Source: Candidatus Cloacimonadales bacterium
GTDB lineage: Bacteria; Cloacimonadota; Cloacimonadia; Cloacimonadales; JAIOQZ01
DNA: 64,000 bases
Assembly: GCA_963665815.1 (NCBI GenBank)
Contig: OY762463.1
Location: forward strand, 1,248,001 to 1,312,000
Reading direction: 5' to 3'
Of the stretch, positions 6,501-35,512 are shown piece by piece. The notes below the pieces were generated by a model. That model was not told where the DNA came from. It was given only the letters and a program-made list of their open reading frames with translations, and did not search any database. The position numbers and the translations under genes are program-made. How positions within the stretch are numbered: the first letter of the stretch is position 1; every line of letters starts with the position of its first letter.

Positions 6501-6812
6501 CATTGTATCTGATTTATCATTATTGTGAATATCAAGAATTCTGGCTGCCTGTATTTCTGAAACTACATTTGCTAAAGTTTTATATATAATAAATATGTAA
6601 ATAGACAGCATTATCAGCCAGACAGCAATATTTGACCAGTATGATACAATTGCATGGTTTTCTGGGATTATTGATTTTAGAATTACAGGAAAGGCAAATC
6701 CAATATTCAAATGAATCAGCATTAACAGAACAATACTTACAGCAGCATTAAGAACGATGTTATTATTCAGCTTTGACTGCTGTTTTTTTATCTTTATTTC
6801 AAACTTACGCAT
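3579..6812 (-). CDS. DUF4175-like membrane-anchored protein with Ig-like domains and long Q/M-rich coiled coil
   Basis: N-terminal TM helices; Y-P-x-Y and DDFGL/EYWITVKDN motifs; long Q/E/K/M-rich helical C-terminus ending YPEEYQEVIQEY. Confidence 0.7.
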   Translation of the reverse strand: MRKFEIKIKKQQSKLNNNIVLNAAVSIVLLMLIHLNIGFAFPVILKSIIPENHAIVSYWSNIAVWLIMLSIYIFIIYKTLANVVSEIQAARILDIHNNDKSDTMQNALELMHEKGENQIVSVILEQADEHSETLSLFKRPIEKQLLTALVMIIVFSTHFMIFPANIKSSINTLLRYRIPENKVVENIQILPGSVEILRGDELEITVVNPMEISEYSLYTKETEIWKKSSMTDGFIELKDSDHSFSYFVRSQYGISDTFRVDVYEKPVIRSINLKMKYPEYMHLDDDEYKNADGNFNVPEGTKVQIEIEANNDLQSADIMWNGGDILKMERIAAKRFSVEFKADRSSSYYFRIMDFLGNQSQRIDYYIKVIKDEIPVAEITYPARDTILSRDMYAGMHFLVSDDFGLNSLKFHFRYLGKKGSRSIQGKIQGITYDTDYLFDGQSLDLGPGDELEYWITVKDNKPSPQTGMSRKYRLRVPSIEEIYQQLEKTEDNLKDSFEDQKKESEEMLNELEKQRRKLMKKENPEWEDKKELEAVLKEQQKIAENIKKLAKEYEKVIDQYEQNESLQKETLDKMEKIKDMMDEVFTDELQEEMRKMQENVFDMNKKDILKSLEKFKFSIEEYNKKLDQTLELLEQLKQEQSLQKSEKMLEELMKQQQELMKDTKEGADKNKLAKRQEELREKLKSLEKQMKDSEDLFSEQDSLSQKMQDELQKLDENKLDEEMKKSSENMKNNQMQKSKQNQQNAMQQMQQMQENLKMMQSMMSGGQMGDIGTVISDSILRFTLLSTLLEDNIKRYDGDPFKIVKEQIAIKEGVEVTLKKLYSIPQSVLFITPKFFTDVARLSEVYHNMFTDINDAKVYNINKYLPELQGILNTMIYDLMQSQASMSSGGGSGSMQSFMQSMQKMSAEQMTMNMMTQQLFDQLSDSGMSSQQRKQLQEMAGNEQRMAENMKRMLQTEGEAQKQADAMQQLIDELEEISRQMRYRKVDRELIERQSKIVSKMLDIQKSINKRETSKKRRAERSNKDWTVPEHVLEKFNSMKQKAQLYRNLSDYPEEYQEVIQEYIRQLNKESQGGDK

Positions 6813-17542: not shown

Positions 17543-17570
17543 TTGACAATATAAAGTATTAAATTATTAT
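17543..17570 (+). promoter_or_regulatory. Putative sigma70-type promoter of the surface-protein/motor operon
   Basis: TTGACA-16 nt-TATTAT in the AT-rich intergenic region upstream of 17698. Confidence 0.4.
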
Positions 17571-17697
17571 CTTAATATATTTTGTATAGATTTGTAATTA
17601 TTTGTCTTTAATAATATTGGCATTATATTTTTTTTGTCGTATAATATAATTAGTAATAATAAAGTGTTTCTAAAATCACATTTTCTGGGAGCAATAG

Positions 17698-20600
17698 ATG
17701 AAATATTTATCAATATTTACTTTGATTCTACTCTGTGCATCTTTTCTGAACTCTGCACCTCTCGAGATATTTGATTGTAATCCCGATACAACAGGAGTTG
17801 AAAATGTATCAACATTATCAAACATTACATTTCATATCAGGGATACAGATCCAAATGGTGGAGTAAATGAAAACTCCATAATAGTGCAAATTCAGGATGA
17901 GATTTATTCTCATACAAGTGCAAACAGCCAATACATCCACTTCATTCCTGTGAACGATCTGGAGTATTATATCGTTATTGACCCTGCAACAAACTTTGCA
18001 TATGGAGATACAGTAAGTGTATCTATTGATGCTTCAGATGTAAATGGTGTTCTGATGCCAACATTTGAATACAGCTACAGATGTATTGTCGATAACCTTC
18101 CACCATACTCTATCGCCAGTAATCCTACTGCAAGGCAACTGCAAGTACCTGTGGACACACCTATTCAGTTTCGTGTCAGAGATATGGAGATGGGGGTTGA
18201 TATTTCAACCGTAACTGCTACAGTAAGGTATCAGAATAACTCTGTTACTTATGGCAGTAATGATACTCAGAACTTTCAGTTCTCGGGAACTCTGGATAAC
18301 TTCCTCTGCCAAGTCAATATGCCGGATGCTTTTGATTTTGGTGATTCAGTTAATGTTGTAATTAATGCGGAAGACCTTGCTGGCAATCAAATGATTCCTT
18401 ATACATACTGGTTTATCTGTTTTATTGATAACGTCCCACCTTATACTGGGGAATACACTCCGGATATTAATTCAATTGACAATCCGGTAAATACAAATGT
18501 TTCATTTAATGTTTATGATCAACATTCAGGAATTGATTTAAATGAACTAAGAATTAAAATTAATGATAACTACTATACACATGTCAGTACTTCTGTAAGT
18601 GTCAATCCTTTGATTGGAGATAATGGCTATCAGGTTATTATCAATCCTATCAATAGCTTTGCCTTTAATGATCTGATTGATGTTACAATCTGGGCTAAAG
18701 ATACTCATGGCAATGAAATGGACTCTGTAGCCTATCAATTTCAGACAATAGCAGACGACACTCCACCTTATACAGGAGACTGGATTCCGGGCAATAACGC
18801 TCAAAACGTACCTTTGAGCACAAACATTCAATTCAACGTTTATGACCTTATTGCAGGCGTCAATCCGAACTCAGTTGTTGTAACAGTTAATAATGACACA
18901 ACTTATACTGTTACAAGCACAGGTGTAAGCTATGTCCAGATTCCAAACGGATATCGATTTACGATAAACCCAACAGTAAACTTTGATTATAACGAGCTTG
19001 TACAAATTGAAATTCAGGCAACGGATAATAACAATAACGTTATGATTCCTTATGATTATTCATTCAGAACAATTCCTGATTCCAATGATCCTCCTATCTT
19101 ACAGCTTCCTGACACATTCTTTGTTAATGAAGATGACAGTCTGGTTGTTGATTTCGATGTTTATACACATGACCCTGATGGGGATGCTCTTGTTATAACA
19201 GTTAACCAGACACCTGTTCATCCAAATATTAATGTCACAATTAATAATAATATGGTAACGTTCAAACCATCCTTCATGAACTGGATTGGTACTGAAAACG
19301 TTGGTTTTACAATTAATGATGGACGAGACAATACAACTGGAACTGTCAGTATTACTGTGCTTCCGGTTAATGACAGACCAGTCATAGTTCTTCCTGATGA
19401 ATTTGTGTTTAATGAAAATGATAATTATCAGATAAACTTCGCTCAATATATTCAAGATGTTGATAACAGCATTGGAGACTTTCAGTTGAACGCCAGCGGA
19501 AACTCAGATATTCATGTATCAATATCTAATACTGTTGTTACATTCTCTGCTGATCCTTACTGGTTTGGTCAGGAAGCGATCACTTTCACTGTATTTGACG
19601 ATGATACAAGGCTTAGTTCATCAGATACAGTACTTGTTAGAGTTGTAAATATTGTTGAAGAGCCTATGATTGATGGACCTTCAAGTATTACCCTTACAGA
19701 AGATACAGCTCAGACATTTGATTTTTCCTATTACATTACAAATAATGATAATATCCCTATAACCCTGACCCAGTCAAACGCTAATGAATTTACTGTAGAT
19801 GTTTCAATAAACGGATATCAGGTTACATTCACTCCGGCTGCCGATTATCAGGGAACAAGAACAATAAGATTTAACTTACTGGACAGCAACAGCAACATAC
19901 TTGATTATGATGATATTGATATTATCGTTACACCTGTTAATGATCCTGTAAGACTTAATCCTGCTTTCCAGAGCTATTTTGAGTTTACTCAAGGATCATC
20001 TCTGAATCTTGATTTCAGTAATCTTATTATGAATCCTGATGAGATTCCATATGAAATGGAACTCTCTGTTGCAGGAAACGAAAACATCATTGTTAATATC
20101 GACAGTCTTATGGTGAATATTTCTGCATCTGAAACTTGGTCTGGTCAGGAAAGGCTTACATTTACAATAGTCGGTGACGAAATAAACGGTACTGATCACT
20201 GGGAATTCGATAAAGAAATTGATATCAAAGTTATCACAACAGTTCAAATAAATCCGTCTTTCAATGATTACTTCACATTCACAGAAGGAACCACCTTCAG
20301 AACAAGTTTTGCCGGCATGGTTACAAATGCTGAGAACTATGCTCTGGAACTCACCTATACGGGAAATTCCTTTATTCAAGTTGATATTGATAGTCTGGAT
20401 GTTTCTTTCTCAGCCCCGGATAAATGGGTTGGAGAAGAGGATATCACATTCAAAATTGCAGGTACTGACCTGAACAGCAGAGCAGACTGGGAATTTGAAA
20501 AAGTAATAAGAATTACTGTTGAACCTGCAGCTGAGAATCTTGGTGAAAAAGTTGAACTACAATACAGGTCAATAACAAGAAATAATGGAAATCAATCCGA

Positions 20601-20826
20601 TATTTACATATATACAGAAGTTGACATTTCGAAGATAAAAGGTAAAATTCTTTCCAGAAGAGGAAAAGTCATTAAAGATTTGAACATTCAAACCCTTGGT
20701 GACAGAAAAGTAACAAACTGGAATACTACAGATAATGATAATAATCTTGTTGATGGTGGTTTCTATATCTACCAGTTCAAAATTGACGACAAGATTTATC
20801 AGGGTAGTATAATTGTAGTAAGGTAA
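17698..20826 (+). CDS. Large secreted surface protein: 4 Ig-like repeats + about 5 cadherin-like (tandem-95-type) repeats + C-terminal sorting domain (T9SS type B-like / FlgD-Ig)
   Basis: Signal peptide; repeats D-x-PPY...VP-x-T-x-I-x-F-x-V-x-D; repeats ...VTF-x-P...W-x-G-x-E...V-x-PVND-x-P; tail GKVIKDL...WNTTD...GFYIYQF...QGSIIVVR. Confidence 0.8.
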   Translation: MKYLSIFTLILLCASFLNSAPLEIFDCNPDTTGVENVSTLSNITFHIRDTDPNGGVNENSIIVQIQDEIYSHTSANSQYIHFIPVNDLEYYIVIDPATNFAYGDTVSVSIDASDVNGVLMPTFEYSYRCIVDNLPPYSIASNPTARQLQVPVDTPIQFRVRDMEMGVDISTVTATVRYQNNSVTYGSNDTQNFQFSGTLDNFLCQVNMPDAFDFGDSVNVVINAEDLAGNQMIPYTYWFICFIDNVPPYTGEYTPDINSIDNPVNTNVSFNVYDQHSGIDLNELRIKINDNYYTHVSTSVSVNPLIGDNGYQVIINPINSFAFNDLIDVTIWAKDTHGNEMDSVAYQFQTIADDTPPYTGDWIPGNNAQNVPLSTNIQFNVYDLIAGVNPNSVVVTVNNDTTYTVTSTGVSYVQIPNGYRFTINPTVNFDYNELVQIEIQATDNNNNVMIPYDYSFRTIPDSNDPPILQLPDTFFVNEDDSLVVDFDVYTHDPDGDALVITVNQTPVHPNINVTINNNMVTFKPSFMNWIGTENVGFTINDGRDNTTGTVSITVLPVNDRPVIVLPDEFVFNENDNYQINFAQYIQDVDNSIGDFQLNASGNSDIHVSISNTVVTFSADPYWFGQEAITFTVFDDDTRLSSSDTVLVRVVNIVEEPMIDGPSSITLTEDTAQTFDFSYYITNNDNIPITLTQSNANEFTVDVSINGYQVTFTPAADYQGTRTIRFNLLDSNSNILDYDDIDIIVTPVNDPVRLNPAFQSYFEFTQGSSLNLDFSNLIMNPDEIPYEMELSVAGNENIIVNIDSLMVNISASETWSGQERLTFTIVGDEINGTDHWEFDKEIDIKVITTVQINPSFNDYFTFTEGTTFRTSFAGMVTNAENYALELTYTGNSFIQVDIDSLDVSFSAPDKWVGEEDITFKIAGTDLNSRADWEFEKVIRITVEPAAENLGEKVELQYRSITRNNGNQSDIYIYTEVDISKIKGKILSRRGKVIKDLNIQTLGDRKVTNWNTTDNDNNLVDGGFYIYQFKIDDKIYQGSIIVVR

Positions 20827-20830
20827 GGTT

Positions 20831-22291
20831 ATGAACATGAAAAATATACTCGTTTTAATACTACTTGTTTCCCTTTCACTTTTGTTCTCTCATGAATTCG
20901 GAGAGCACGGAGGAGTTCGTAATGCAGCAATGGGCGAAACCGGAATTTCTAACAGTACTGACGTTTCAGGTGCTCAATGGAATCCTGCATTAATCAGCAG
21001 CCTGAAACACTATCAGTTTGTCACTGACTTAAGACAATCCTCAGTCCAGTTAGATAATGATGATATTTACCATAACTTCCTTTTCCTCGGAATTCCTGTT
21101 GAGAATATTGGTACTTTCTCTGTCAGTGGAGGTCTTTTCAATTCTGATGAGTATGAGAATGCCGAATTAAGTTTGAATTACGGAAGAAGCCTTGGAGATA
21201 AATGGGCAGTTGGATTAACTGTTGTAAATTACTATGTAAACTACTCAGGAATATCTGAAACATCATCCGCTCTTGATCTTGGTCTGGGTGCACTTTATCA
21301 TCCTACCGAATATTTCACACTTGGTTTATCAACCAGAAATTTGCTTAGACCGGATGTTGCCGTAGACTCACGTAATGAAGACAAATTGCCTATGCTTGCT
21401 GGTTTAGGAGCAACTTTCCATGCTAACAATCTGATAATCACAACTGATTTTGAATATCAGGACATGCTGAATACAGATGATGAAATCAGGCTTGGACTTG
21501 GTGCGGAATACTCCATATATGATAACCTCGCAATTCGAACAGGTTTCAACAATAACTTCTTTACAGCCGGTTTCGGAGTAAAGATGTATACAAAAAACTG
21601 GTTTGCCAATCCTGACAGGACTAACGACCTGTATAACGTAAATACAGCTTCAATATCTCTTGATTATTCTGCAAGGTTCCCCATTTTCTTTAGTGGTGGA
21701 AATGACCTTATAAGCTTTGAAAATGAAGCTGAAACAGAATATGGAGATCACTTTATTGGGATTACGGTTGACTTTGGTACAGACACAGTTAACAAAGATC
21801 AGCTTGCATATTACTTCCCTGAAAAGTATGGAAGAAGATTCGGTGTTGCAGATACTGTTTTCATCGAAAAAGTTGTTAAAGACACAATCTATCAGGACAG
21901 AACAATAATTGATACTGTTGCTGTTTATGAAAAAATTGTGGATCAGGAGCTTTTACAGGAAAGACTGGAAGAACAACTTGAGATTGTAAAAGTAAAAGAA
22001 TATGACAGTATTAACAGAGCATCTGTTGATCACCTTGTTAATGCTTTACGTTACTACTACAATGCTGAATACAAGAAATCAATTGCAGAATGTGAAAAAT
22101 CAATTGATATCGCTCCTAGATTGTCATTGTCATACATTATTCTCGGATCCATATACTATAAAATGGGAGATAGTGAACTTGCATTTGACTACTGGGAAAA
22201 AGCAAAGAAAGTATATTCGAAAAATGAAGAATTAAATAAAGTTTTAGAAAACATTTATAATGGAATTGAAGATTTCATTCCACAATATTAG
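20831..22291 (+). CDS. PorV/UPF0164 (FadL-like) outer-membrane beta-barrel with C-terminal stalk and TPR extension
   Basis: Signal peptide; GVRNAAMGE...WNPA N-terminal motif; amphipathic strands (LDLGLGALY, LGLGAEY, AIRTGF, FTAGFGV, IGITVDF); C-terminal TPR (YIILGSIYYKMGD-x-AFDYWEKA). Confidence 0.78.
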   Translation: MNMKNILVLILLVSLSLLFSHEFGEHGGVRNAAMGETGISNSTDVSGAQWNPALISSLKHYQFVTDLRQSSVQLDNDDIYHNFLFLGIPVENIGTFSVSGGLFNSDEYENAELSLNYGRSLGDKWAVGLTVVNYYVNYSGISETSSALDLGLGALYHPTEYFTLGLSTRNLLRPDVAVDSRNEDKLPMLAGLGATFHANNLIITTDFEYQDMLNTDDEIRLGLGAEYSIYDNLAIRTGFNNNFFTAGFGVKMYTKNWFANPDRTNDLYNVNTASISLDYSARFPIFFSGGNDLISFENEAETEYGDHFIGITVDFGTDTVNKDQLAYYFPEKYGRRFGVADTVFIEKVVKDTIYQDRTIIDTVAVYEKIVDQELLQERLEEQLEIVKVKEYDSINRASVDHLVNALRYYYNAEYKKSIAECEKSIDIAPRLSLSYIILGSIYYKMGDSELAFDYWEKAKKVYSKNEELNKVLENIYNGIEDFIPQY

Positions 22292-22305: not shown

Positions 22306-23691
22306 ATGAAAAGATCATTCATCATCGTTATGTTTTTGTTTTCCTTCGTTGTTCTGCTAGCCCAGAATTACGATACGGTATATCAGATTGATGCTGAAAA
22401 AAGCCTGGCAGAGCGTATCGAAAAGGTTATTGAACCGATTGCCGGTAAAACAGTCGTAATTGTTGATCTTGAATTAAGATATCCGCCAGAGGGACTTGTA
22501 CCGTTCGGAATGGAACTCGATAAAAAATCTAGTCTTCCGGGAATTCCCGTTGCAAAATCCAAGGGTGTTTTAACTCCAAACATTGCAGATCAACCTACAT
22601 TTCCTACGATTGTAACCAAAAAGAAGATCATAATTTATGCAGACCAGAATCTTTCAGCAGACAGGGAAGCATATATTGCAGAAAATGTTGCCAAATGGTT
22701 TGCTCTTAATCTTCTTGAAAACGATGTTTTAGAGATTCGAAAAGAGTTAGATCTTACAGGTAGCTCAAAAGGGAACTTTTTTACTTCCCCTATCTTCTAT
22801 TTCATTATATTCCTGCTATTGTTGATAGTCTTCTTTGTTATTGCCCTGTTCCATGTAAACAGAATGGCAGAATCAATGAGACATGTTAATATTACAGGTA
22901 TCGACAGTCTTATCAGAATTATGAGTTCAATGCAGACAAAATTTGAGACAATGAGTAACGCTGTTTCAGGACTGGACTATTCTTCCAAGGAACCATTACC
23001 TATACAGGTTATGGAAAAACGTGAAGATGTATACGACGAATCTATGGACTTCCACTTCATTGAAAAACTTTCAATGCCGGAATTTGTCCATCTTATAAAA
23101 GATGAAACTGCAGACAGTGCAGCATTTATCTTGTCTAATCTTTCTACGAATTTTGCCAGAAACTTCTTCCAGGAATACCTTGGCAATTCTGCTGAGATAA
23201 TCAAACACATGACAACCTCAGTAAAACAATCCAAGAAAGATGTTCAGGAACTGAGAGCTAAACTCTATGACCGATTCAAACTTATTGTTGAAGAAAGTCA
23301 GGTTAGATTTGAAGGAGCATCAACTCTTATCAAGGTTACTAATTCACTTCCTACCGGATACAGTTCAGACTTCTATAAACTCATCCAGAAAGCTGATGGA
23401 AAAGCAGCATCTGACATCAGAGATAAAGTGTTCCTGCTTGAAGATGTTGAAAAACTGGATGATAATGTAATTGATCAGATAATTAAGCAATCAGATCATA
23501 ACCTGTTAGTCAAATTCCTTCTCAGTGTAGATGAAAGTCTTCTTCAAAAATTCTTCCAGAATATGTCTGAAAGAAATATCCTGATTGTCAAAGAGGATAT
23601 GGAAGTACTTGGACCTCTATCTTCCGATGACAAAGAAAAGACTAAGAACAGCATGTTAGCAATGATCAGATCAATGCTCAAATACAAATAA
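22306..23691 (+). CDS. FliF(ring-building motif)-TM-FliG(middle + C-terminal) fusion protein
   Basis: C-terminus matches FliG_C (VFLLEDVEKLDD...KFFQNMSER...KEDMEVLGP); aa 248-325 resemble FliG_M (FHFIEKL...IKDE...AFILSNL); aa 30-146 resemble FliF RBM3 (ERIEKVIEPIAG-x-VIVDLEL...LPG...IIIYAD...NDVLEI); TM at aa 163-182. Confidence 0.8.
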   Translation: MKRSFIIVMFLFSFVVLLAQNYDTVYQIDAEKSLAERIEKVIEPIAGKTVVIVDLELRYPPEGLVPFGMELDKKSSLPGIPVAKSKGVLTPNIADQPTFPTIVTKKKIIIYADQNLSADREAYIAENVAKWFALNLLENDVLEIRKELDLTGSSKGNFFTSPIFYFIIFLLLLIVFFVIALFHVNRMAESMRHVNITGIDSLIRIMSSMQTKFETMSNAVSGLDYSSKEPLPIQVMEKREDVYDESMDFHFIEKLSMPEFVHLIKDETADSAAFILSNLSTNFARNFFQEYLGNSAEIIKHMTTSVKQSKKDVQELRAKLYDRFKLIVEESQVRFEGASTLIKVTNSLPTGYSSDFYKLIQKADGKAASDIRDKVFLLEDVEKLDDNVIDQIIKQSDHNLLVKFLLSVDESLLQKFFQNMSERNILIVKEDMEVLGPLSSDDKEKTKNSMLAMIRSMLKYK

Positions 23692-23701
23692 GGAAAATGT
23701 T

Positions 23702-24439
23702 ATGAAGATTAGCACAATATTAGGTATCATAATCGGGTTTGGAATAATCTTATATGCAGTATATCTTGAAGACGCAATCCAGTATTTTCTGAATCCTCAG
23801 GCAATATTGATTGTTGGCGTTGGAACATTTGCAGCTGTACTGATTTCATTTTCCTCAAGTGCAATCATAGATGCAATCTTTGCATTCTTCGCTATTTTTA
23901 CAAGCTCAGGACTTTCACCCAAAAAAGTCATTGAGATTATTGTGAATCTCGGAAAAGAAGCAAGAACAAACAGCTATGAAAGCCTTTTACTCAGTAGACA
24001 TGTCAAGAATCTTGGAATGCTTGAAAGAGGAATAAGATTACTAAATGAAGATGTTACATCTGATAAAATTGAAACTATCCTCACCAGAGAAAGTAAAGCA
24101 CTATCAGACAGAAACAGAACGGCTGAAAGAGTCTTCAGACTTGCCAGTACATTCTCACCACTATTTGGTATGATCGGAACTGTTATCGGGATGGTTATAA
24201 TGATTAATAAATCATCCAATCCGGATGATCTTCCCAAAGCAATGGGAATAGCTCTGTTATCCACTCTTTACGGACTTATCCTGTCTGGTCTTGTTTTCAA
24301 ACCTATTGCAAGTAAGATTAGAGATAATAACCATACTAATAACAAAGTTAACGACATTATCATCGAAGGTGTTCTGTCAATTCAGAATGGCGAGAATTCT
24401 CAGCTTACAAAAGAAAAACTTGAAACATATTTACATTAG
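23702..24439 (+). CDS. motA: MotA/PomA-family stator A subunit
   Basis: TILGIIIG, FLNPQAILIVGVGT, KEAR, SPLFGMIGTVIG, MGIALLSTLYG, FKPIASK, IIEGVLSIQNGEN: full flagellar-type MotA/PomA pattern. Confidence 0.92.
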   Translation: MKISTILGIIIGFGIILYAVYLEDAIQYFLNPQAILIVGVGTFAAVLISFSSSAIIDAIFAFFAIFTSSGLSPKKVIEIIVNLGKEARTNSYESLLLSRHVKNLGMLERGIRLLNEDVTSDKIETILTRESKALSDRNRTAERVFRLASTFSPLFGMIGTVIGMVIMINKSSNPDDLPKAMGIALLSTLYGLILSGLVFKPIASKIRDNNHTNNKVNDIIIEGVLSIQNGENSQLTKEKLETYLH

Positions 24440-24447
24440 AGTTTATC

Positions 24448-25032
24448 ATGAGTAATAAAGTAATAAATTTTAAGGGAATTAAAAGATTTACTCAGCAGGA
24501 TACGACTGATGAGGAAAATTGGGTTGATGTAATGGTTTCCTTTGCAAGCCTGATGCTGATTCTTGTTGTATTTTACATGTTCTTTCAATCATATCAAAAA
24601 TTATATGATGAGGGGAAAATTGAAAATGCTGTATATTCTCAAGATTCCACTCGATATGTTTTTACTTTGAAGAATGCCGAATATTTCAAGAGTTACAGCA
24701 GTTCTTTTACCGCAAATGCCGAAACAGATCTGATTCAACTTGGAAAGATGCTTAATTCAAAGATTGAAAATCAAAAAAGAAAATGGCAGATCAGAATTGA
24801 AGGACATACTGATGATATTCCGTTCAGTGACAGTAATTATTCTTCAAACCTGGATCTGAGTGCTGCAAGAGCATCGGCTATTGCGAATTTCTTTATTTCA
24901 AAAGGTTATTTTCATCCGGATCAGCTTCAAGTAGCAGGATATGGAGACTTAAAACCTATGGTACCAAATGTAAGTGATGAGAACAGAATATCAAATAGAA
25001 GAGTAAATATTATTTTGTATAAAGTACATTAA
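24448..25032 (+). CDS. motB: MotB-like stator B subunit with OmpA-type peptidoglycan-binding domain
   Basis: Single N-terminal TM; IRIEGHTDDIP...SNLDLSAARA...GYGDLKP...NRRVNI; directly after motA; canonical TM Asp replaced by Ser. Confidence 0.85.
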   Translation: MSNKVINFKGIKRFTQQDTTDEENWVDVMVSFASLMLILVVFYMFFQSYQKLYDEGKIENAVYSQDSTRYVFTLKNAEYFKSYSSSFTANAETDLIQLGKMLNSKIENQKRKWQIRIEGHTDDIPFSDSNYSSNLDLSAARASAIANFFISKGYFHPDQLQVAGYGDLKPMVPNVSDENRISNRRVNIILYKVH

Positions 25033-25052
25033 TATACAATCTTAAACATATG

Positions 25053-25085
25053 AGACCTGTTGTTTTACAATGGGTCTTTTTTTTT
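25053..25085 (+). terminator. Rho-independent terminator after motB
   Basis: AGACCTGTTGT-TTT-ACAATGGGTCT hairpin followed by a long T run. Confidence 0.8.
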
Positions 25086-25306
25086 CAAAATCCCTTCATC
25101 CCTTTACTGATGTCCATTTTCACTATTAGATGATTAGTCTTCATTAAGAAAACAACCCGACTACTATACTTTCAAATAATACATATCAACAATTGAATAT
25201 TGATTATTGAAATTAATTGTTGACTTACTCTGTATATATATCAATATTATGAACACAGATATTTCATTATAATAGAAATATCAAAACACTAAACAAGGAG
25301 AAAAGT

Positions 25307-28300
25307 ATGCGAAGACAATTAATATTAGCTTTATTGCTTTTATTCGCAGTTTCCATTTTTGCACAGACCTCAGGAGGTCCTGACGCTTACGGATACTCAT
25401 GGATTAACAGTAATGATGCTAATGGTCCTTCTTTCACCTGGATCACTCCGGATACAGTGAACGCAACACAAGTAACTACTTTCACGGACGATTCAATGGT
25501 AGGTCCATTCACAATTGGTTTTAACTTTCCATTTTACGATCAAACAAAGACAGACTTTTATTTAAGTTCAAACGGATTTATTTCCTTTACAGGAGACACA
25601 AACAGTCTCACAAACTACACAATCCCTACACCAGGCATCCCTAATGACTTTATTGCATGGTTCTGGGATGACATGGACCCTGTAAGCACTACAGCCCCAG
25701 CTAACAATGCTCGTGTTTATTACGAAAATATAACTTACAGTGGTACTAACGCGCTTCTAATCACATACCTGAATTATCATGAATACTCAGGAGAAGGAAC
25801 AGGATACGTTGATGCACAAGTTATCCTGAGAGACAATGGTCAAATCATCATGCAATACGATTCATTCAATGGTGGTATTGTTTTAAACGAAGCTACAATT
25901 GGCATCGAAAACTCTGATGGAACTATCGGTCTTGAATACTGCTTTGATGACTCAACATTAATTTCAAATCAACTTGCCATAAAATATTACACAATTGAAG
26001 ATGGCTATCCTGAATTTGCACAAAACCCTAATCCAGCCTCAGGATCAACAGGTATTCTCGTTAATGGAACATTAACATGGGATTTCGGTGCAGATACTGA
26101 TACTTATGATTTATGGTTCGGACCTGCAGGAAATATGACTCAGGTTGTAACCGGTGCCACAGCAGGAGCTACAGGCTCATACACATATAGTGGACTTAAT
26201 ACTCTTTCCAGCTACGAATGGAGAGTCGATACTCATAATACTGCTGTTAGACTTTCTACAATCGGAGCAGTATGGACTTTCGAAACTCAGTGTGGTACAA
26301 TTACTACATTCCCATGGAGTGAAGATTTTGAAGGAGCACAGCTTCCTTCATGCTGGGTAGAAGATATTAATAACATTACTCCATGGTCTTTTGGTACATC
26401 TACTCCATCCTCTCCTACCGGTCCTTCATCTGGAGACCATACAAGTGGTTCAGGATATTTCATGTATACAGAAGCATCTGGAAGCCTCAATCAAGTTTTC
26501 AAAGTGACATCCCCAATATTTGATGCATCTGCTTTAACATCACCAGTTCTTGAATTCTGGTATCATATGTACGGGCAATCAATGGGAACTCTTCAAGTTA
26601 ACATTTTAGAACCGGCTACCGCTACATTACACTCAGATGTTATTACTCCTGTATCAGGAGATCAGGGAGATGTATGGAACAACGCAAGTGTAGATTTAAC
26701 ACCTTACACAGGTGAATTCCAGATTGAATTCATCGGAACAACAGGAGATGACTACTACAGTGACATCTGTATTGATGATGTAGGTATTTATGATAATGTT
26801 ACAACACCTGCATGTAACGCACTGAATACACCGGCTGATATGGCTATTGACATTATTGAAGCTGGAACACTGACTTGGAGTGGATCACAAGGTGCAACAG
26901 GCTATAAAGTTTCTCTTGGTACAGATAACCCTCCAACAAACATCGAAGATGGTCTTGATGTTGGAGCAGCTTTTTCTTATGACTTCTCAGGATTAACTTT
27001 CGGAACAACTTACTACTGGATGGTAACTCCTTACAATACAAACGGTGAATCTACAGGATGTCCTGTAAGATCATTCACTGTAAGAGCTGATCCAACCATA
27101 TCTACTTTCCCATGGACTGAAGATTTCAGCGTATGGCCACTACAAGACTGGGTTTTTGCAGGATCAAGACTGTGGGCAGAAGATTCAGGATCAGGATCTG
27201 CTTACTGTAATTTCTGGGGTTGGAGCGATGGTGAAGCTCATATGGTTACTCCTCCAATAGCCCTCCCTGCTACAGGTTCTTACAGCTTTGGTTTCAACTG
27301 GTCTCACTTATACAGCACTACATATCCTACAGACTCAGCGGCAGTATTAGTTTCTACTGATGGAGTTAACTGGAACATGGAATGGACTCTTGGTGGAACT
27401 AACTTCGATTCAAACGATGGAGCTGCGAACACTGCTCCAGGTACATTTACTTATGCTGAATTCAATCTTGACAGTTATCTTGGACAAACGATATACATTG
27501 ATGTAGTAGGTTACACAGGCTATGGTCCTAACTTCTACGTTGATAATGCTACTGTTTTCAGCGTTTCAACACCTCCTGGATGCTCAACAGCTGATACTCC
27601 TGCTGATGGTGCTAATGAAATTATCGAAATGGGCACACTCAGATGGAATACTACTGGAGGAACAACCGGTTATAAACTCTTCTTTGGGTCAGATAACCCA
27701 CCTACAAACATTGAAAATGGAACAGATCTTGGTAACGTGCAAACTTACGACTTCTCAGGACTTGCATTCAATACTACTTACTACTGGACTGTAGTACCTT
27801 ATAACACTAATGGTGATGCTACAGGATGCCCTGTATGGTCATTCACAACAAGACCTGATCCAACAGTTACTAACTTCCCATGGACAGAAGATTTCTCATC
27901 ATTCCCACTTGAGCCACGTGGCTGGAGCTATGGTGGTACTCAGCAATGGGCTGAAGATGCAGGTTCAGGAAGTATATTCGCAAACTTCTGGAGCTGGAGC
28001 ACTGGTAATGCTGAATTATACTCACCACCAATCGCATTAACAGGAAACGCAGACCTTCTTTTCAAATGGTCACACACATTCAATACTTCATATCCGGATG
28101 ATGCTTTTGAAGTGTCAGTATCAACAGATCAATCAAACTGGACTGTTGTATGGTCAATTCAGGATTCTCTGTTTGAATCTAATGATGGTGCTCAAAGTAC
28201 AGCTCCTGGTACTTTTGTTCAGGAAACCGTAAATATTGATGCATATAGTGGTCAGACAATCTATCTTAAGTTTGATGGTATTTCAGGATACGGTCCTAAC

Positions 28301-30037
28301 CTATACCTTGATGATGTTGGAGTTAATATTACAACACCACCAGACGATGATCTTACAGTTATTACAGTTATTGGTAACACAACTCCAATGGTTGGATCAC
28401 CTTCAGATTATACAATTTCCGTAAGAAATAATGGTCTTAACACACAATCAACTTATGATGTAAAACTTATGCTTGCTCCTGATACCGAACTCGGAACTAT
28501 TGCAGGTACTACAATTGCACATGATCAGATTAATGATTATGTTATCACCTGGATTCCTCAAGCAGGAATGGAAGGAAATCAGAATATCTTCGGTAAAGTT
28601 GTTCTTGCCGGTGACGAAGGTCCTGGTAATGATGCTTCTGCACCACTTCCAGTCAACGTTCAAGCATCACAAACAGGTATTCAGGGCTATGTACGTGACA
28701 TTAACGGCAACCCACTGTTTAACGCTCAAGTACTGATTGAAGAACTCCAGTCTGTTCAATATACAGGTAATAATGGATTCTATCAATTCCTTAATGTTCC
28801 TGTTGAAACATATACAGTAACTGCAAGTTTGACAAATTATGATAACAATACACAAACTAATGTCGTAGTAACTCAGGACAACCTTACTGACGTAAACTTC
28901 ACAATGACTCAGGGTGCAATCCTCATGGGTACTGTTTACGATCATGCTAATGTTGAAGTTGCCGGAGCTCTTGTTGAAATCGAACAACTTGCTATTACAA
29001 CAACAACAGATGCACAAGGTAACTACACATTTGTACAGGTTACACCGGGAACATATACTGTTAATGCAACTAAAGATGGTTATATTGATCAAACTGAATC
29101 TAACGTAGTTATAGCTGCGGATGCAACTGTTGATCTTGATATTATTCTTAACGAATATGGTCATTTCACAGTTAATATAACAACAAACCTCAGTTCACCA
29201 ACCGGTGCAATTGTTGAACTTACTGACGGAACAAACACATATACTGAAACATCAGATGATACCGGTGTTGTTCTTCTCAACGAGGTTCTTCCGGGAACAT
29301 ACAATCTTACAGCTTCACTTCCGGACTGTAACATTCACGAACAACAGAATATTGTTATTGTAAATGGTGACAATACTCCTGTTGATGTTACTCTTGATGA
29401 AATCCTTATTGCTCCAACAAACATTCAATGGCTTAACAATGATCGTATTCTTGTTTGGCAGCATGGTGACAGAATTTATGGAACCAGAGCAGATGGTGAA
29501 ACAGCACTTGTTGAAGGATCATCTTATGTTGAAAGAGATTCTGATAATGAAGAAGACGAACGTGCATTCATGTATTTCAGAGTTGAAATTGATATTATTA
29601 ATCAAACAACATCAGATACATTCTTCACAGTGACAGGATTTAACATTGGAGAACAACTTACTGCTACAATCACAGCAGTATATGAAACAGGTACCGCAGC
29701 AGCTCCAGATTTTGATTTCACATTTGAAGAAGTTGCAAACGATCCTGATGATGTAAATCTTGTTACAGAACTTAAAGGTAACTATCCTAACCCATTCAAT
29801 CCTACTACACACATTGAATTCTCACTTAAGAAAGCCGGAAACGTAGAACTTGCTATCTACAATATCAACGGACAGAAAGTAAGAACACTTGTAAGTGAAG
29901 AAATGGAAGCAGATAACCATAAGGTTACCTGGAATGGTAAAGATGACAGAGGAAACTCAGTTTCAAGTGGAACATATTTCTACAGACTGCAAACCTCTGA
30001 AACAACACAAACTAAGAAAATGCTGATGCTGAAGTAA
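25307..30037 (+). CDS. Large secreted multidomain surface protein (FN3-like, MAM/cleaved-adhesin-like, CARDB-like, carboxypeptidase-regulatory-like repeats) with T9SS type A-like/FlgD-Ig CTD
   Basis: Signal peptide; MAM-like TGPSSGDHTSGSGYFMYTEAS...FWYHMYG...DICIDDV; three GxVxD...T...GxYxF repeats; tail GNYPNPFNPTT...IYNINGQKVRTL...WNGKD...SGTYFYRL...KKMLMLK; RBS AAGGAG. Confidence 0.88.
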   Translation: MRRQLILALLLLFAVSIFAQTSGGPDAYGYSWINSNDANGPSFTWITPDTVNATQVTTFTDDSMVGPFTIGFNFPFYDQTKTDFYLSSNGFISFTGDTNSLTNYTIPTPGIPNDFIAWFWDDMDPVSTTAPANNARVYYENITYSGTNALLITYLNYHEYSGEGTGYVDAQVILRDNGQIIMQYDSFNGGIVLNEATIGIENSDGTIGLEYCFDDSTLISNQLAIKYYTIEDGYPEFAQNPNPASGSTGILVNGTLTWDFGADTDTYDLWFGPAGNMTQVVTGATAGATGSYTYSGLNTLSSYEWRVDTHNTAVRLSTIGAVWTFETQCGTITTFPWSEDFEGAQLPSCWVEDINNITPWSFGTSTPSSPTGPSSGDHTSGSGYFMYTEASGSLNQVFKVTSPIFDASALTSPVLEFWYHMYGQSMGTLQVNILEPATATLHSDVITPVSGDQGDVWNNASVDLTPYTGEFQIEFIGTTGDDYYSDICIDDVGIYDNVTTPACNALNTPADMAIDIIEAGTLTWSGSQGATGYKVSLGTDNPPTNIEDGLDVGAAFSYDFSGLTFGTTYYWMVTPYNTNGESTGCPVRSFTVRADPTISTFPWTEDFSVWPLQDWVFAGSRLWAEDSGSGSAYCNFWGWSDGEAHMVTPPIALPATGSYSFGFNWSHLYSTTYPTDSAAVLVSTDGVNWNMEWTLGGTNFDSNDGAANTAPGTFTYAEFNLDSYLGQTIYIDVVGYTGYGPNFYVDNATVFSVSTPPGCSTADTPADGANEIIEMGTLRWNTTGGTTGYKLFFGSDNPPTNIENGTDLGNVQTYDFSGLAFNTTYYWTVVPYNTNGDATGCPVWSFTTRPDPTVTNFPWTEDFSSFPLEPRGWSYGGTQQWAEDAGSGSIFANFWSWSTGNAELYSPPIALTGNADLLFKWSHTFNTSYPDDAFEVSVSTDQSNWTVVWSIQDSLFESNDGAQSTAPGTFVQETVNIDAYSGQTIYLKFDGISGYGPNLYLDDVGVNITTPPDDDLTVITVIGNTTPMVGSPSDYTISVRNNGLNTQSTYDVKLMLAPDTELGTIAGTTIAHDQINDYVITWIPQAGMEGNQNIFGKVVLAGDEGPGNDASAPLPVNVQASQTGIQGYVRDINGNPLFNAQVLIEELQSVQYTGNNGFYQFLNVPVETYTVTASLTNYDNNTQTNVVVTQDNLTDVNFTMTQGAILMGTVYDHANVEVAGALVEIEQLAITTTTDAQGNYTFVQVTPGTYTVNATKDGYIDQTESNVVIAADATVDLDIILNEYGHFTVNITTNLSSPTGAIVELTDGTNTYTETSDDTGVVLLNEVLPGTYNLTASLPDCNIHEQQNIVIVNGDNTPVDVTLDEILIAPTNIQWLNNDRILVWQHGDRIYGTRADGETALVEGSSYVERDSDNEEDERAFMYFRVEIDIINQTTSDTFFTVTGFNIGEQLTATITAVYETGTAAAPDFDFTFEEVANDPDDVNLVTELKGNYPNPFNPTTHIEFSLKKAGNVELAIYNINGQKVRTLVSEEMEADNHKVTWNGKDDRGNSVSSGTYFYRLQTSETTQTKKMLMLK
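26801..28325 (+). repeat. Internal tandem duplication (2 x about 255 aa) within the 1576-aa surface protein
   Basis: TPAD...GYK...DNPPTNIE-G...YDFSGL-F-TTYYW-V-PYNTNG...GCPV-SFT...FPWTEDFS...GYGPN-Y-D occurs twice (about 26801-27558 and 27567-28325). Confidence 0.85.
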
Positions 30038-32762: not shown

Positions 32763-35318
32763 CTATTTTAATAAAAGCATTTTTCTGTCCAATTTTCTGT
32801 CTGGTGTATTTATTCTATAAAAATACACTCCTGAGCCTACTGAAATCCCATTTTCATCCAATCCTTTCCAATGTAACTTGTTCACTCCTTCCTCCATAAC
32901 ATCGTCAAACAATTGTACTACTTTCTGACCTTTCATATTATAAATGCTTACATTGACAGATTGCTTCCTTACATTATTGAACTCTATGGTTGTCTCCGGA
33001 TTAAAAGGATTTGGATAGTTAACAGCGCTATAATAATTAACAGGATTAACATCACTGTCAGAATCTGTTAACCGTATGCTTTTTATATTTGTTCTATCTG
33101 ACTCAGTCTGAGAATTATATGCTACAATATATAAATCAACATTTGTATTTATAACAAGCTCGTAAGTAAGAGTATTAATTGGTAATGTTGTAACTAAAGT
33201 TCCATCATCGTAAACTCTGTAGCCATCCCAACTGATTGAATCGGAATAAGCCGGAGGTGACCATGTCAGTTTTGTGTTATTCCCTGTGCCGGGAGATACA
33301 ATTAGATCGGTAGGATGATCCGGTTCAAGTTGTGAAAAGATCCACACATTATCCTGTTGAATAAAATCATTTCCCGACAATGTAACATTCAAGTCCTTAA
33401 GCTTGAAATATTCAGCTGTAAATGGGACTCCATTTATGTACTCGTAAATCTTCATTCTATAATATCCATAATTATCAGAATACCATATCTGCTGAACTAC
33501 TGTCCCGTTATCTACTATTTCCACTATATCAGCCATATCTTGTTGTCCATCTACGGTAACACTCTCGGAAACAACATATTCTGCTTCAATCAATCGGGCA
33601 AAGTCTCCCTCAACGGCACTATAATTCCATATATCACCGCTAACAGGATTAAATCTGCATTCTGTAACAATCATATCAATTATTGTATAATCAAATATCC
33701 GCGTCGAATCTCTCTCTACAACAACTCCATTGACCGTAATCTCAGCATTATTACTTTCCATATATTTAGTAAATCCGGTATAAACTCCGGACCTGAAGTG
33801 TACAGGATATGACATTATTCCCTGAAAATCCTCTGCTGCGTCAACAACAACACTTACTACCGGATTATCATCAAAAATTGTGAAATCATTATTATCATTT
33901 GCAAAGCTGTGAACTGTTATAATCTGAGGATCCAGAAGACCTCCGTAAATACCATAGCCCTGTGGAACATCTTCAGCAAATATAGCTTCAGCGGTAACAT
34001 AATAATCTCCTGAGTCCGGAACATTAACGTAGTAAAAACCAGTTGTAGACTGTGTATATACTAATGGGGTATCTAAAGAATCAACTTTGTAAACTTTTAT
34101 CAGAATAGAATCCACTGTATTGGTTCCATAATAGTACATATTACCTGTAATTGATGGACGTGCTCCAGATGAAATTGGTGTAAAAATAACCTGTCCTGAT
34201 CCAAGTTCGTGAATGCTCTGTGCGATCAAGTTAATATCAAACTCTCCCCATGAGTTATTTTGAGCAAAAATATCAAGGCTTGAACCTGATACAACAGAAT
34301 TGGCAGTTCCATTCATTTCATTATCATGAATAGAATTAGATCCATCATCATTAGTCTCAAAATTCGTAACGTTGCCCAGATTTGGCTGAGCATTATTATT
34401 AATATAGAATCCAGCGTAATTATGGGATATTGTGTTTCCCGAAAATACAGCATTACTTCTCGGCCCAAAACACATTATTCCTGCTCCTGAATCAGCATTT
34501 CCGGTTTCGTAATTGTAAGAAACAATATTGTTCTGATAAAAACCGGACGTATTAGCTGAGTAGATACCTGTATAATTGAACTGAACAAGATTATTATATA
34601 CTTGAGGATTAACATTACCAACACCCATTAAATCTGAAATTATCATTCCCTGTCTATTGTTATGATGTATAGTATTTCTTCTTATTACTGGAGATACTTC
34701 TGCTCCTTGAGTCTGAACTGTAAGATGAATTCCCCCATACCATGAACCGGATAAGGCACATTGCGTTATTTCGCAATCTTCAATGACTACATTTCCATTT
34801 TCGGCAATTGTAATACCGGCATCACCTATATGACTTACAAACGTATTCCTGACTATCATTTCAGGAGGATTGCTCTCTCCTGCTGCGAAAAGATCTATTC
34901 CTTTTTCGTGATTATTTATTAAACAGTGATCAATAATTACTGGACTGGTTACAACCTTTATCCCGCAGCTATTTTGACCACCAGTACCACTGACCCTGCA
35001 ATAACTGAATGTGCTTTCTTCATCTCCTTCCAGCCTTATTCCTTTCCACTCAGTAGCTATATCGGACAGAACAAACATTATGGAGTCTATCTCAGTTCCA
35101 TCTGCAATAATCCAACCTGATACGTTAATTTGATAAAAACCATTTACAATGACTGTCACTCCCGGGTTTATTATAAGACTATCAGTAATATTAATATCTC
35201 CAATCACATTATAGGGTGATTGATTTGCATCCCATACACCATTAATGTTTCCGGAAACATCCGTTGAAAACAGACTTAAAGAAAAAAACAGAATCATTAA
35301 AATGCAAAACTCTTTCAT
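32763..35318 (-). CDS. Secreted right-handed beta-helix repeat protein with FN3-like domain and T9SS type A-like/FlgD-Ig CTD
   Basis: Start MKEFCIL after GGAG; W-x-SPYNVIGDI...IINPGVTV, many N-x-I-x-N-x-GI repeats; tail NYPNPFNPETTI...GVYFYRI...RKMLLLK. Confidence 0.85.
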   Translation of the reverse strand: MKEFCILMILFFSLSLFSTDVSGNINGVWDANQSPYNVIGDINITDSLIINPGVTVIVNGFYQINVSGWIIADGTEIDSIMFVLSDIATEWKGIRLEGDEESTFSYCRVSGTGGQNSCGIKVVTSPVIIDHCLINNHEKGIDLFAAGESNPPEMIVRNTFVSHIGDAGITIAENGNVVIEDCEITQCALSGSWYGGIHLTVQTQGAEVSPVIRRNTIHHNNRQGMIISDLMGVGNVNPQVYNNLVQFNYTGIYSANTSGFYQNNIVSYNYETGNADSGAGIMCFGPRSNAVFSGNTISHNYAGFYINNNAQPNLGNVTNFETNDDGSNSIHDNEMNGTANSVVSGSSLDIFAQNNSWGEFDINLIAQSIHELGSGQVIFTPISSGARPSITGNMYYYGTNTVDSILIKVYKVDSLDTPLVYTQSTTGFYYVNVPDSGDYYVTAEAIFAEDVPQGYGIYGGLLDPQIITVHSFANDNNDFTIFDDNPVVSVVVDAAEDFQGIMSYPVHFRSGVYTGFTKYMESNNAEITVNGVVVERDSTRIFDYTIIDMIVTECRFNPVSGDIWNYSAVEGDFARLIEAEYVVSESVTVDGQQDMADIVEIVDNGTVVQQIWYSDNYGYYRMKIYEYINGVPFTAEYFKLKDLNVTLSGNDFIQQDNVWIFSQLEPDHPTDLIVSPGTGNNTKLTWSPPAYSDSISWDGYRVYDDGTLVTTLPINTLTYELVINTNVDLYIVAYNSQTESDRTNIKSIRLTDSDSDVNPVNYYSAVNYPNPFNPETTIEFNNVRKQSVNVSIYNMKGQKVVQLFDDVMEEGVNKLHWKGLDENGISVGSGVYFYRINTPDRKLDRKMLLLK

Positions 35319-35512
35319 TTTATTATCTCCTTGTAAATAACCAAACATGTAAAAATATGTACTTACTACGTTTATATTTTATGTAATTATCTAAGCAATT
35401 CGCATGTTTAAAATATTAAACAATTTAGTTAATCCAAAAGTCAAGTAATATTTCAATGTAAACGGTAAATATTAGCAGGATTGTACACTTAGCAACAAAC
35501 CTGTTTTTTTGC

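Follow-up and report, generated by a model that had tools for sequence, protein, structure and literature searches.

Can the rotor and stator parts of the flagellar motor form a machine of the cell envelope that has no flagellum attached to it? This question is raised by one gene in a 64,000-nucleotide stretch of DNA from a Candidatus Cloacimonadales bacterium (GenBank assembly GCA_963665815.1, contig OY762463.1, positions 1,248,001 to 1,312,000 of the forward strand), herein referred to as the window (G+C content 36%). The gene, located at positions 22306..23691 of the window, encodes in a single chain a domain resembling ring-building motif 3 (RBM3) of the flagellar membrane-ring protein FliF and the middle (M) and C-terminal (C) domains of the rotor protein FliG. 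It belongs to an operon together with genes for a MotA/MotB-type stator, an outer-membrane (OM) barrel with tetratricopeptide repeats (TPR), and a giant protein with immunoglobulin-like (Ig) repeats. This operon looks like a flagellum-independent envelope machine built of flagellar motor parts. We hold with moderate confidence that the fusion serves as the ring subunit in the inner membrane within a five-gene envelope module that works independently of flagella.

Architecture of the Fusion Protein

The gene encodes a natural single-chain FliF(RBM3)-FliG(M+C) protein with the following features.

22306..23691, + strand: FliF(RBM3)-FliG(M+C) fusion gene, an intact open reading frame (ORF) with an ATG start, 461 amino acids (aa)
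22306..22362, + strand: predicted signal peptide, aa 1-19 (...LLA before the cleavage site, QN after it), read from the sequence
22378..22749, + strand: RBM3-type ring-building domain, aa 25-148, with a 43-aa insert at aa 59-101
22789..22884, + strand: single transmembrane (TM) helix, aa 162-193, a helix of the model and a hydrophobic stretch
23053..23295, + strand: FliG middle (ARM) domain, aa 250-330, with ETAD at the EHPQ position
23314..23676, + strand: FliG C-terminal domain, aa 337-457, with R423, E430, and D431 and with VFLL at the MFxF position

From the N-terminus, the 461 residues comprise the signal peptide, the RBM3-type domain, one TM helix, a disordered linker, FliG M, and FliG C. 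The N-terminus (MKRSFIIVMFLFSFVVLLA, followed by QN) reads as signal-peptide-like, and the L-x-A-Q site near it is kept in the family consensus. The full-length AlphaFold model, built with the family alignment, has a predicted local distance difference test score (pLDDT) of 78.6; the linker (aa 193-244) is disordered, with pLDDT below 50. In the N-terminal half of the model, a helix (25-46) and a strand (50-58) precede the insert, and a strand (102-113), a helix (118-131), and a further strand (141-148) follow it. When modelled alone, the RBM3-type domain has a pLDDT of 84.5 and a predicted template modelling score of 0.70.

Structure comparison assigns this domain to the RBM3 type. In a Foldseek search against PDB, the top 18 matches were all to FliF RBM3/S-ring structures, starting from E 3.8e-6, and the next match was SpoIIIAG (E 8.3e-4). 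VIA-align, which is independent of Foldseek, gave the best match to residues 232-438 of Salmonella FliF (Z 12.7, root-mean-square deviation 2.6, 96 residues), followed by two Vibrio FliF S-rings (Z 12.2 and 11.0), SpoIIIAG (Z 9.6), and PrgK (Z 8.6 and 8.2). The match to the FliF RBM1-2 fragment (Z 6.2) scored below those to RBM3 and SpoIIIAG. A link to FliF was also found in sequence: FliF chains are among the matches of the family profile (E 2.6e-4 to 2.7e-3), and Pfam YscJ_FliF_C matches one of the 36 family members. The collar insert of about 43 aa is much shorter than that in FliF, and 130 model residues span 207 FliF residues. Within this insert lies the most conserved stretch of the fusion family, SLPG[LI]P[VI]A[KR]S (aa 76-85). 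RBM1 and RBM2 are absent: the Pfam scan gave no PF01514 (YscJ_FliF) match to the fusion, and only about 125 folded residues are periplasmic.

The FliG half is recognized directly by sequence. Pfam FliG_C matches aa 360-457 above its cut-off (E 5.8e-19), and the NCBIfam fliG model TIGR00207 aligns aa 234-457 with its positions 97-320 of 338 (85.5 bits vs a cut-off of 226.7). The profile of 36 full-length relatives matches first the M and C domains of Thermotoga maritima FliG (1LKV, E 3.5e-47), from about FliG residue 104 on, and then every other solved FliG. Pfam FliG_M matches 18 of the 36 family members. FliG_N is absent, as the TIGR00207 match begins at model position 97 and aa 193-244 are disordered; the covalent link between the two halves would replace the contact of FliG_N with the C-terminal tail of FliF.

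Individual residues were placed on T. maritima FliG through the family-consensus alignment and mapped to the window protein through the family alignment (A1). R423 and E430/D431 align with the Arg and the two acidic residues that are conserved in the torque helix, which we take to be R281 and D288/D289 of Escherichia coli FliG. At least 90% of the family share R423, and its close members show almost no variation at E430/D431. At the EHPQ position stands ETAD, of which only the Glu is family-conserved, and at the position of MFVF (the MFxF hinge) stands VFLL, where the family consensus is IFLxED.

A preliminary description of this gene, made from the sequence alone, had proposed a signal-like N-terminus, an RBM3 domain with a very short insert, one TM helix, a linker, and FliG_M- and FliG_C-like domains within 461 aa. 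Given the fold and domain matches, this architecture is right: models, profile searches, and structure searches bear it out, and the comparison of aa 25-150 with FliF RBM3 and SpoIIIAG shows an RBM fold (Foldseek E 3.8e-6; VIA-align Z 12.7). The motifs quoted there lie at aa 419-423 (NMSER, with R423), 429-432 (KEDM, with E430 and D431), 267-270 (ETAD), and 375-378 (VFLL), as had been stated. The family alignment and the residue positions also confirm that the FliM-binding EHPQ and the MFxF motif were lost and that the torque-helix charges were kept. One alternative considered in that description was an MgtE_N-type domain in the C-terminal half (aa 245-461). MgtE_N does match 25 of the 36 family members (best E 5.8e-9), whereas FliG_C matches all 36 (best E 4.5e-26). 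The window protein has no MgtE_N match at E<=0.1, and no MgtE chains are among the PDB profile matches at E<=1. Thus, the MgtE_N identity was ruled out, FliG_C being far stronger.

Relatives and Distribution of the Fusion

A word-indexed search gave 12 relatives of the fusion. When 1.84 billion cluster representatives, with clusters defined at 50% identity, were searched exhaustively with HMMER, 34 clusters were found at E<1e-30, all of the same length and span; the fusion family is therefore real and not a product of chance. More distant relatives of 430-640 aa share the same plan, and ordinary FliGs of about 335 aa rank after them.

The conserved stretch of the insert, used as a DNA pattern drawn from the 12-row family alignment, retrieved 29 loci. 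Most of these belong to metagenome-assembled genomes (MAGs) of Cloacimonadota, including Ca. Tenebribacter; two belong to Neomarinimicrobiota, two to Gemmatimonadota, and two to one unclassified MAG. The family profile matches 75 of the 232 Cloacimonadota genomes. Row-by-row reading of these matches assigned the fusion to 49 genomes, a canonical-type FliG only to 20, and a different FliG-containing ORF of about 670 aa to six. Thus, the architecture is spread over Cloacimonadota (49/232 genomes), Neomarinimicrobiota, and Gemmatimonadota.

Some deviations were seen among the relatives. Two full-length copies of the fusion are present in some genomes (G144, G188, and G152); those of G144 share a contig, with 3 kb between them (C42:19585-21009 and 24000-25451). 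The copy in G222 contains one in-frame TAG. Two distant relatives of 634-640 aa (P0106 and P0117) have TPR repeats after FliG_C, hence on the cytoplasmic side. The ORF of about 670 aa is found in G203-G208 (family f14), six closed genomes of 1.5-1.6 Mb, and is FliG-like over profile positions 245-460. No fusion, no canonical-length FliG, and no SprA were found in these six genomes in the phylum profile surveys, and the ORF may represent another FliG-containing architecture.

A Conserved Operon of Five Genes

The fusion gene is the third of five genes on the + strand, with intergenic gaps of 4, 14, 10, and 8 nt. The other features of the operon are as follows; the promoter-like and terminator-like sites are consensus matches only.

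17543..17645, + strand: two promoter-like sites, each with 11/12 matches to the sigma-70 consensus
17698..20826, + strand: gene for a giant Ig-repeat protein, 1042 aa, with Pfam Big_5, Big_9, and cadherin-like domains
20831..22291, + strand: gene for an OM barrel with TPR, 486 aa, with a PorV/PorQ/PorP-like barrel at aa ~25-316 and TPR at aa ~395-470
23702..24439, + strand: gene for a MotA/PomA-type stator A protein, 245 aa (NF006527, PDB PomA)
24448..25032, + strand: gene for a MotB-type stator B protein, 194 aa (Pfam OmpA), with Ser34 and without plug/linker
25052..25078, + strand: terminator-like hairpin of 12 pairs with a T run, 20 nt past the MotB stop

All five genes were found together in 20 of the 29 loci, belonging to Cloacimonadota, Neomarinimicrobiota, and Gemmatimonadota. 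The remaining nine loci are truncated by contig or locus ends, and no sufficiently long locus lacks a member; homologues of the giant protein, in particular, lie in the same cluster in every locus long enough. Two gene orders were observed. In Cloacimonadota, the order is giant protein, barrel-TPR protein, fusion, MotA, MotB. In the marinimicrobial loci, in the Gemmatimonadota locus L031, and in locus L033, the order is fusion, MotA, MotB, giant protein, barrel-TPR protein.

All five genes are under strong purifying selection. Comparison of the window with its 93%-identical relative L005, at a dS close to saturation, gave dN/dS values of 0.028-0.042 for the five genes; the lowest belongs to MotA (0.028), and the value for MotB is 0.039. 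These values bear on the idea that the module is what remains of flagellar genes in decay. Such a remnant could explain the reduced domain set, the loss of EHPQ, MFxF, and the MotB Asp, and the family scores below threshold. Nevertheless, the ORFs are intact, omega is 0.03-0.04 in the five genes, 34 clusters are found at E<1e-30, and synteny extends across three phyla. Neither frameshifts nor neutral evolution was seen; a remnant is contradicted by these data and is hardly tenable.

Independence from Flagella

The host genome, a single contig of 3.96 Mb, has a full set of flagellar genes besides the module. This set includes genes for FliF, a FliG of 346 aa (with EHPQ and MFVFED), FliM beside a second MotA/MotB pair, FlhA, and six Flagellin_N proteins. 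Two explanations had to be distinguished: a separate module and an accessory of the host flagellum, acting either as a second rotor or as a decoy ring that sequesters stators as a brake. An accessory would agree with the complete-looking flagellar set, with the canonical FliF gene lying about 21 kb upstream of the window, and with the flagellar PomA type of the operon MotA.

However, the fusion and a canonical FliG were found together in only 2 of the 49 carriers, namely, in this genome (G000) and in its congener G119. FlhA and flagellin were found in none of the five closed single-contig carriers (96-100% complete). Moreover, the module has its own MotA and MotB, and its MotA is only 29% identical to the flagellar MotA of the same genome. 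Finally, the tree of FliG domains separates the fused from the canonical proteins by a branch with an SH-aLRT support of 97, with 53 canonical FliGs, including that of the host, on one side and 44 fused ones on the other. This is a quick maximum-likelihood tree (LG+G4, unrooted), from which 21 long FliG-containing proteins of other architectures (427-996 aa) were left out. Since 47 of the 49 carriers show no canonical FliG and the five closed carriers lack FlhA and flagellin, the fusion is not a flagellar part. The flagellar-accessory explanation, highly improbable on all this evidence, was rejected on the carrier genomes without flagellar genes.

In the tree, the fused family is placed apart from every canonical FliG sampled and could therefore be an old sister group to the flagellar rotor. 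As judged from these sequences, it could be either such a sister of canonical FliG or a fast-evolving offshoot, and the unrooted tree fits both. If it is an old sister, it would show a rotor without a secretion system. If the module is a rotary machine, the window clade would be a variant in which the coupling Asp was moved or abandoned.

The canonical flagellar genes of the host have peculiarities of their own. The canonical fliF (C1:1227006) and fliG (C1:3190227-3190889) are about 2 Mb apart, and the latter lies outside any flagellar operon, between a peptidase-like gene and a gene for a mini-FliG. The mini-FliG (L001:1868-2374, 14 nt after the canonical fliG) is an ORF of 168 aa that resembles a permuted FliG: a FliG_C-like part comes first (NNMSVRAASIISES, E 1.9e-20 to FliG_C) and is followed by a FliG_M-like part (ENPETIALVL). 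Short FliG_C matches akin to it were found in G102, G127, G128, and G129.

The Stator Proteins

The operon MotA is of the PomA type over its whole length. It matches positions 1-244 of 254 of the NCBIfam PomA model NF006527 (E 1.7e-44, below the cut-off of the model), and its best PDB match is Vibrio PomA (8BRD/8BRI, E 3e-33 over 1-244, full length). In this alignment, R88 corresponds to R88 of PomA, and R or K occupies this column in most family MotAs. Additionally, the two prolines of the TM3 and TM4 segments, presumably equivalent to P173 and P222 of E. coli MotA, are kept. The operon MotB matches Pfam OmpA (E 2.3e-16), and its top PDB matches are MotB, PomB, and MotS chains. The MotB alignment comprised 22 family MotBs (that of the window and 21 others) and the flagellar MotB of the genome. 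The channel Asp is kept in 19 of the 22 family MotBs, in the motif PYADLMT (TYGDMMT in the flagellar MotB).

The Outer-Membrane Barrel and the Giant Protein

The barrel-TPR protein has a signal peptide. It matches NCBIfam PorV_fam (E 2.1e-20, 73.5 bits, under the cut-off of 90) and, at its cut-off, Pfam PorP_SprF (E 1.1e-4, 22.3 bits); TPR models matched as well. The protein is conserved across 23 sequences, and its conserved tail beyond the barrel ends in the TPR. Its look-alikes found by a protein language model are PorP/SprF+TPR and PorV/PorQ+TPR clusters of Elusimicrobiota, Zixibacteria, and Calditrichota.

The giant Ig-repeat protein is probably a surface protein of the T9SS (type IX secretion system) type, as far as its sequence and those of its homologues indicate. 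Its C-terminal 97 aa resemble the C-terminus of the giant protein of L033 (E 5e-8). The model for T9SS type B sorting, TIGR04131, matches three of nine giant proteins below its cut-off (L028, 2.1e-5; L022, 5.2e-5; L033, 9.7e-7), and the end of the L022 protein additionally matches Pfam CHU_C (E 1.1e-9). Type B cargo proteins of Bacteroidota have neighboring genes for PorP/SprF-like barrels, which hold them.

Neighboring Genes and the Question of a T9SS Motor

Genes flanking the operon vary between lineages. In the window, genes for HDOD proteins and histidine kinases are its neighbors. An MscS-like gene lies directly downstream of the operon in many Cloacimonadota loci, and genes for a pair of an Hpt and a CheY-like receiver protein, together with Wzz-type, LytR, and Poly_export genes, lie directly upstream in the marinimicrobial loci. 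Two genes for T9SS type A cargo proteins with Por_Secre_tail flank the operon in the window:

25307-30037, + strand: 1576 aa, with MAM and CarboxypepD_reg domains
32763-35348, - strand: 861 aa, with a beta-helix

SprA, the T9SS translocon, was found in this genome and in 212 of the 232 Cloacimonadota genomes. GldL and GldM were not detected in this genome, and GldM_1st scored over its cut-off in none of the 232 genomes; no control genome matches these models, and absence is thus not proven.

These neighbors suggest another output for the module. Its motor might serve secretion, envelope remodelling, or sensing, for example export of polysaccharide or T9SS cargo or mechanosensing, rather than move an adhesin. 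The marinimicrobial Wzz-type, LytR, and Poly_export genes with the Hpt/receiver pair, the MscS-like gene, the T9SS type A cargo of 1576 aa after the operon of the window, and the frequency of SprA (212/232) next to that of GldM over cut-off (0/232) would agree with such a role. Nonetheless, such neighbors are not kept across lineages, unlike the giant protein and the barrel-TPR protein, and with the fusion in 49 and SprA in 212 of the 232 genomes, a role as the phylum's general T9SS motor is excluded for the module. We therefore regard an output of this kind as improbable, and the narrower idea of a replacement T9SS motor in place of a missing GldLM was rejected as a general role.

A Model of the Module and Its Difficulties

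For the module as a ring-based envelope machine, the following model can be proposed. After cleavage of the signal peptide, each fusion subunit would be held by one TM helix. The RBM3 domains would pack laterally into a ring close above the membrane, an arrangement known from the S-ring of FliF, whose ring has about 33-34 subunits, and from SpoIIIAG, and the attached FliG M and C domains would form a cytoplasmic ring. The torque helix with R423, E430, and D431 would face PomA-like MotA pentamers placed around a peptidoglycan-anchored MotB dimer (MotA5B2). The ring would house neither an export gate nor a switch complex because RBM1/RBM2, FliG_N, and the FliM site are all absent.

The insert with its conserved SLPGLPVAKS loop may be the periplasmic output face. 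Its likeliest partners would be the PorV/PorP-like OM barrel with its periplasmic TPR tail and the giant Ig-repeat protein, which, with an end resembling the type B C-terminal domain (CTD), would be kept at the cell surface by the barrel. A prediction of a three-chain complex of the RBM3 domain, the periplasmic part of MotB, and the periplasmic tail of the barrel protein gave a score of 0.01 (mark 0.32), which counts neither for nor against such contacts. In most family members, the stator appears to have every hallmark of an ion-driven motor, and the module might turn or pull a surface adhesin complex. Tentatively, then, the module may be an autonomous rotary envelope machine that has no gate or switch and turns or drags a giant T9SS-type adhesin through the barrel-TPR protein; we regard this as possible, with the odds against it. 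If true, such a machine would be a second, hitherto unknown surface-motility or adhesin-driving motor of bacteria of the Fibrobacteres-Chlorobi-Bacteroidetes (FCB) group and others.

Several observations weigh against this model. In MotB, the position of the channel Asp is occupied by Ser34 in the window (SFASLML), by Ser in L005, and by Asn in L006, and the MotBs of these three loci are also missing some 40 aa past the TM helix, namely the plug/linker, the stretch in which MotB_plug matched in L009 and L022. Substitution of the channel Asp of MotB abolishes stator function. In MotA, the column of PomA E96 and MotA E98 is occupied by L or S in the window and varies among the family members. 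In the FliG half, S439 and L406 stand at the positions of two further charged residues of FliG, which we take to be R297 and K264 of E. coli FliG. The curated cut-offs for FliG, PomA, PorV, and the type B CTD were all missed by the module proteins. The giant protein of the window gave no match to TIGR04131, and its best CTD match was to a FlgD-like Ig model (E 0.034). The cytoplasmic TPR of P0106 and P0117 fits poorly with a purely periplasmic role of the TPR.

Since MotB of the window clade lacks the channel Asp and the plug, rotation is doubtful for this clade. The preliminary description had concluded that the ring has no export gate and no switch and would be a unidirectional, non-chemotactic rotor. 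Its first part, the missing gate and FliM site, stands with the absence of RBM1/RBM2, FliG_N, and EHPQ; the rotor, in contrast, is weakened for this genome by the MotB without Asp and plug, and the Hpt and CheY-like receiver genes of the marinimicrobial loci make its non-chemotactic nature less certain. Low dN/dS (0.039 for MotB) indicates that the Asp-less stator is maintained and not decaying. A family-specific Asp of MotB, Asp27, is kept seven residues upstream of Ser34. By helix geometry, D27 would lie on about the same helical face as position 34. Either D27, two helix turns below, took over ion coupling in the window clade as an altered coupling site, or the clade has a non-conducting, static version of the stator.

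If the stator is static, the module of the window clade would be a non-rotating, envelope-spanning anchor in which a FliG ring and a non-conducting MotAB, as a scaffold fixed to peptidoglycan and membrane, tether the barrel and the adhesin. Ser34 in the window, Ser in L005, and Asn in L006 would then be expected, as would the absence of the plug/linker, which a non-conducting channel does not need; strong selection shows that the proteins are in use. Yet a scaffold would have little reason to retain the charges of the torque helix, R88 of MotA, and the prolines of TM3 and TM4, all of which are kept, and no gene of the module is more constrained than that for MotA (omega 0.028). Furthermore, the channel Asp is present in 19 of the 22 family MotBs, and the window MotB has the second Asp (D27) seven residues upstream. 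A static anchor thus seems rather unlikely.

Comparison with Known Systems

The ring-based module shares with the flagellar rotor and stator the RBM3 fold with a beta insert, the FliG M and C domains with the Arg and the acidic pair of the torque helix, a full-length PomA-like MotA, and a MotB with an OmpA-like domain, as in MotAB and PomAB. The topology is also that of the flagellar rotor, with the ring outside and FliG inside. Unlike the flagellar rotor, the fusion is one polypeptide and lacks RBM1/RBM2, FliG_N, EHPQ, and MFxF. Unlike in the flagellum, the operon contains no genes for FliM, FliN, rod, hook, or filament, and carriers without flagellar genes exist. Unlike flagellar MotB, the MotB of the window has neither the channel Asp nor the plug.

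A further likeness is to SpoIIIAG of Firmicutes sporulation, which also has an RBM3-like domain with a beta insert and assembles into a large ring that has no type III export gate. SpoIIIAG, unlike the window fusion, has no FliG part and no stator. TPR proteins are also known next to flagellar stators, where MotX, PflA/PflB, and FlcA are periplasmic TPR/Sel1 scaffolds. Like these, the TPR protein of the module is encoded together with MotB and would stand between the inner-membrane motor and the OM; unlike in these, its TPR is fused to an OM barrel.

In gliding and T9SS of Bacteroidota, the GldLM motor acts with the adhesin SprB and its PorP-like partner SprF. The module would resemble this system in its predicted ion-driven inner-membrane motor of the 5:2 type, its giant repeat protein as a putative adhesin with a possible type-B-like C-terminus, and the adjacent gene for a putative PorP/SprF/PorV-like barrel. 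It differs in that its motor consists of MotAB and a FliG ring and in that movement of its adhesin is hypothetical. The Bacteroidota systems are covered by reviews, considered here in part (PMC9127263, PMC8986121).

Covalent joining of FliF to FliG has a precedent in engineered proteins. According to the parts of the reports considered here, FliF-FliG fusions engineered in Salmonella and Vibrio still assemble rings (PMC6079021, PMC11481574, PMC10941966). As described there, these fusions are full-length and keep RBM1-3 and FliG_N, whereas the window fusion is natural, has only RBM3 and FliG M/C, and is encoded in a separate operon. The publications searched describe FliF-FliG fusions as engineered proteins; neither a natural fusion nor such a module was found in them, and supplementary lists of homologues may hold uncommented members. 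Fusions are not mentioned in the available portions of a 2026 preprint about the last bacterial common ancestor and its flagellum (PMC13277936).

The flagellar rotor-stator pair, FliG and MotAB, is treated as flagellum-specific in current surveys. In the sections considered here, a 2025 phylogeny of MotAB names this stator class 'flagellar ion transporters' (PMC12505986), and a 2025 survey of the loss of motility describes rotor proteins in non-motile species without filaments and asks about another function (PMC12199754). If the proposed module is real, it would be a concrete case of a non-flagellar rotor function. It would also offer structural studies a minimal rotor, in which a single protein replaces FliF and FliG, and provide a test case for a flagellar motor existing without the secretion core. 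The MotB without Asp and plug, under selection, is an oddity for the field of 5:2 motors. New here are the branch of Cloacimonadota, Marinimicrobia, and Gemmatimonadota with its barrel-TPR fusion, the giant protein with a putative T9SS-type end as the fifth conserved gene, the coexistence of the module with a full flagellar set, and this unusual MotB.

Other Genes of the Window

Two ORFs have no Pfam match at E<=1e-5: 3579-6812 (- strand, 1077 aa) and 48855-50396 (+ strand, 513 aa). Another ORF, 60853-63639 (- strand, 928 aa), contains two full sets of Mur ligase domains and looks like a MurE-MurF fusion. It heads an otherwise ordinary dcw cluster, extending from murD to ftsZ.

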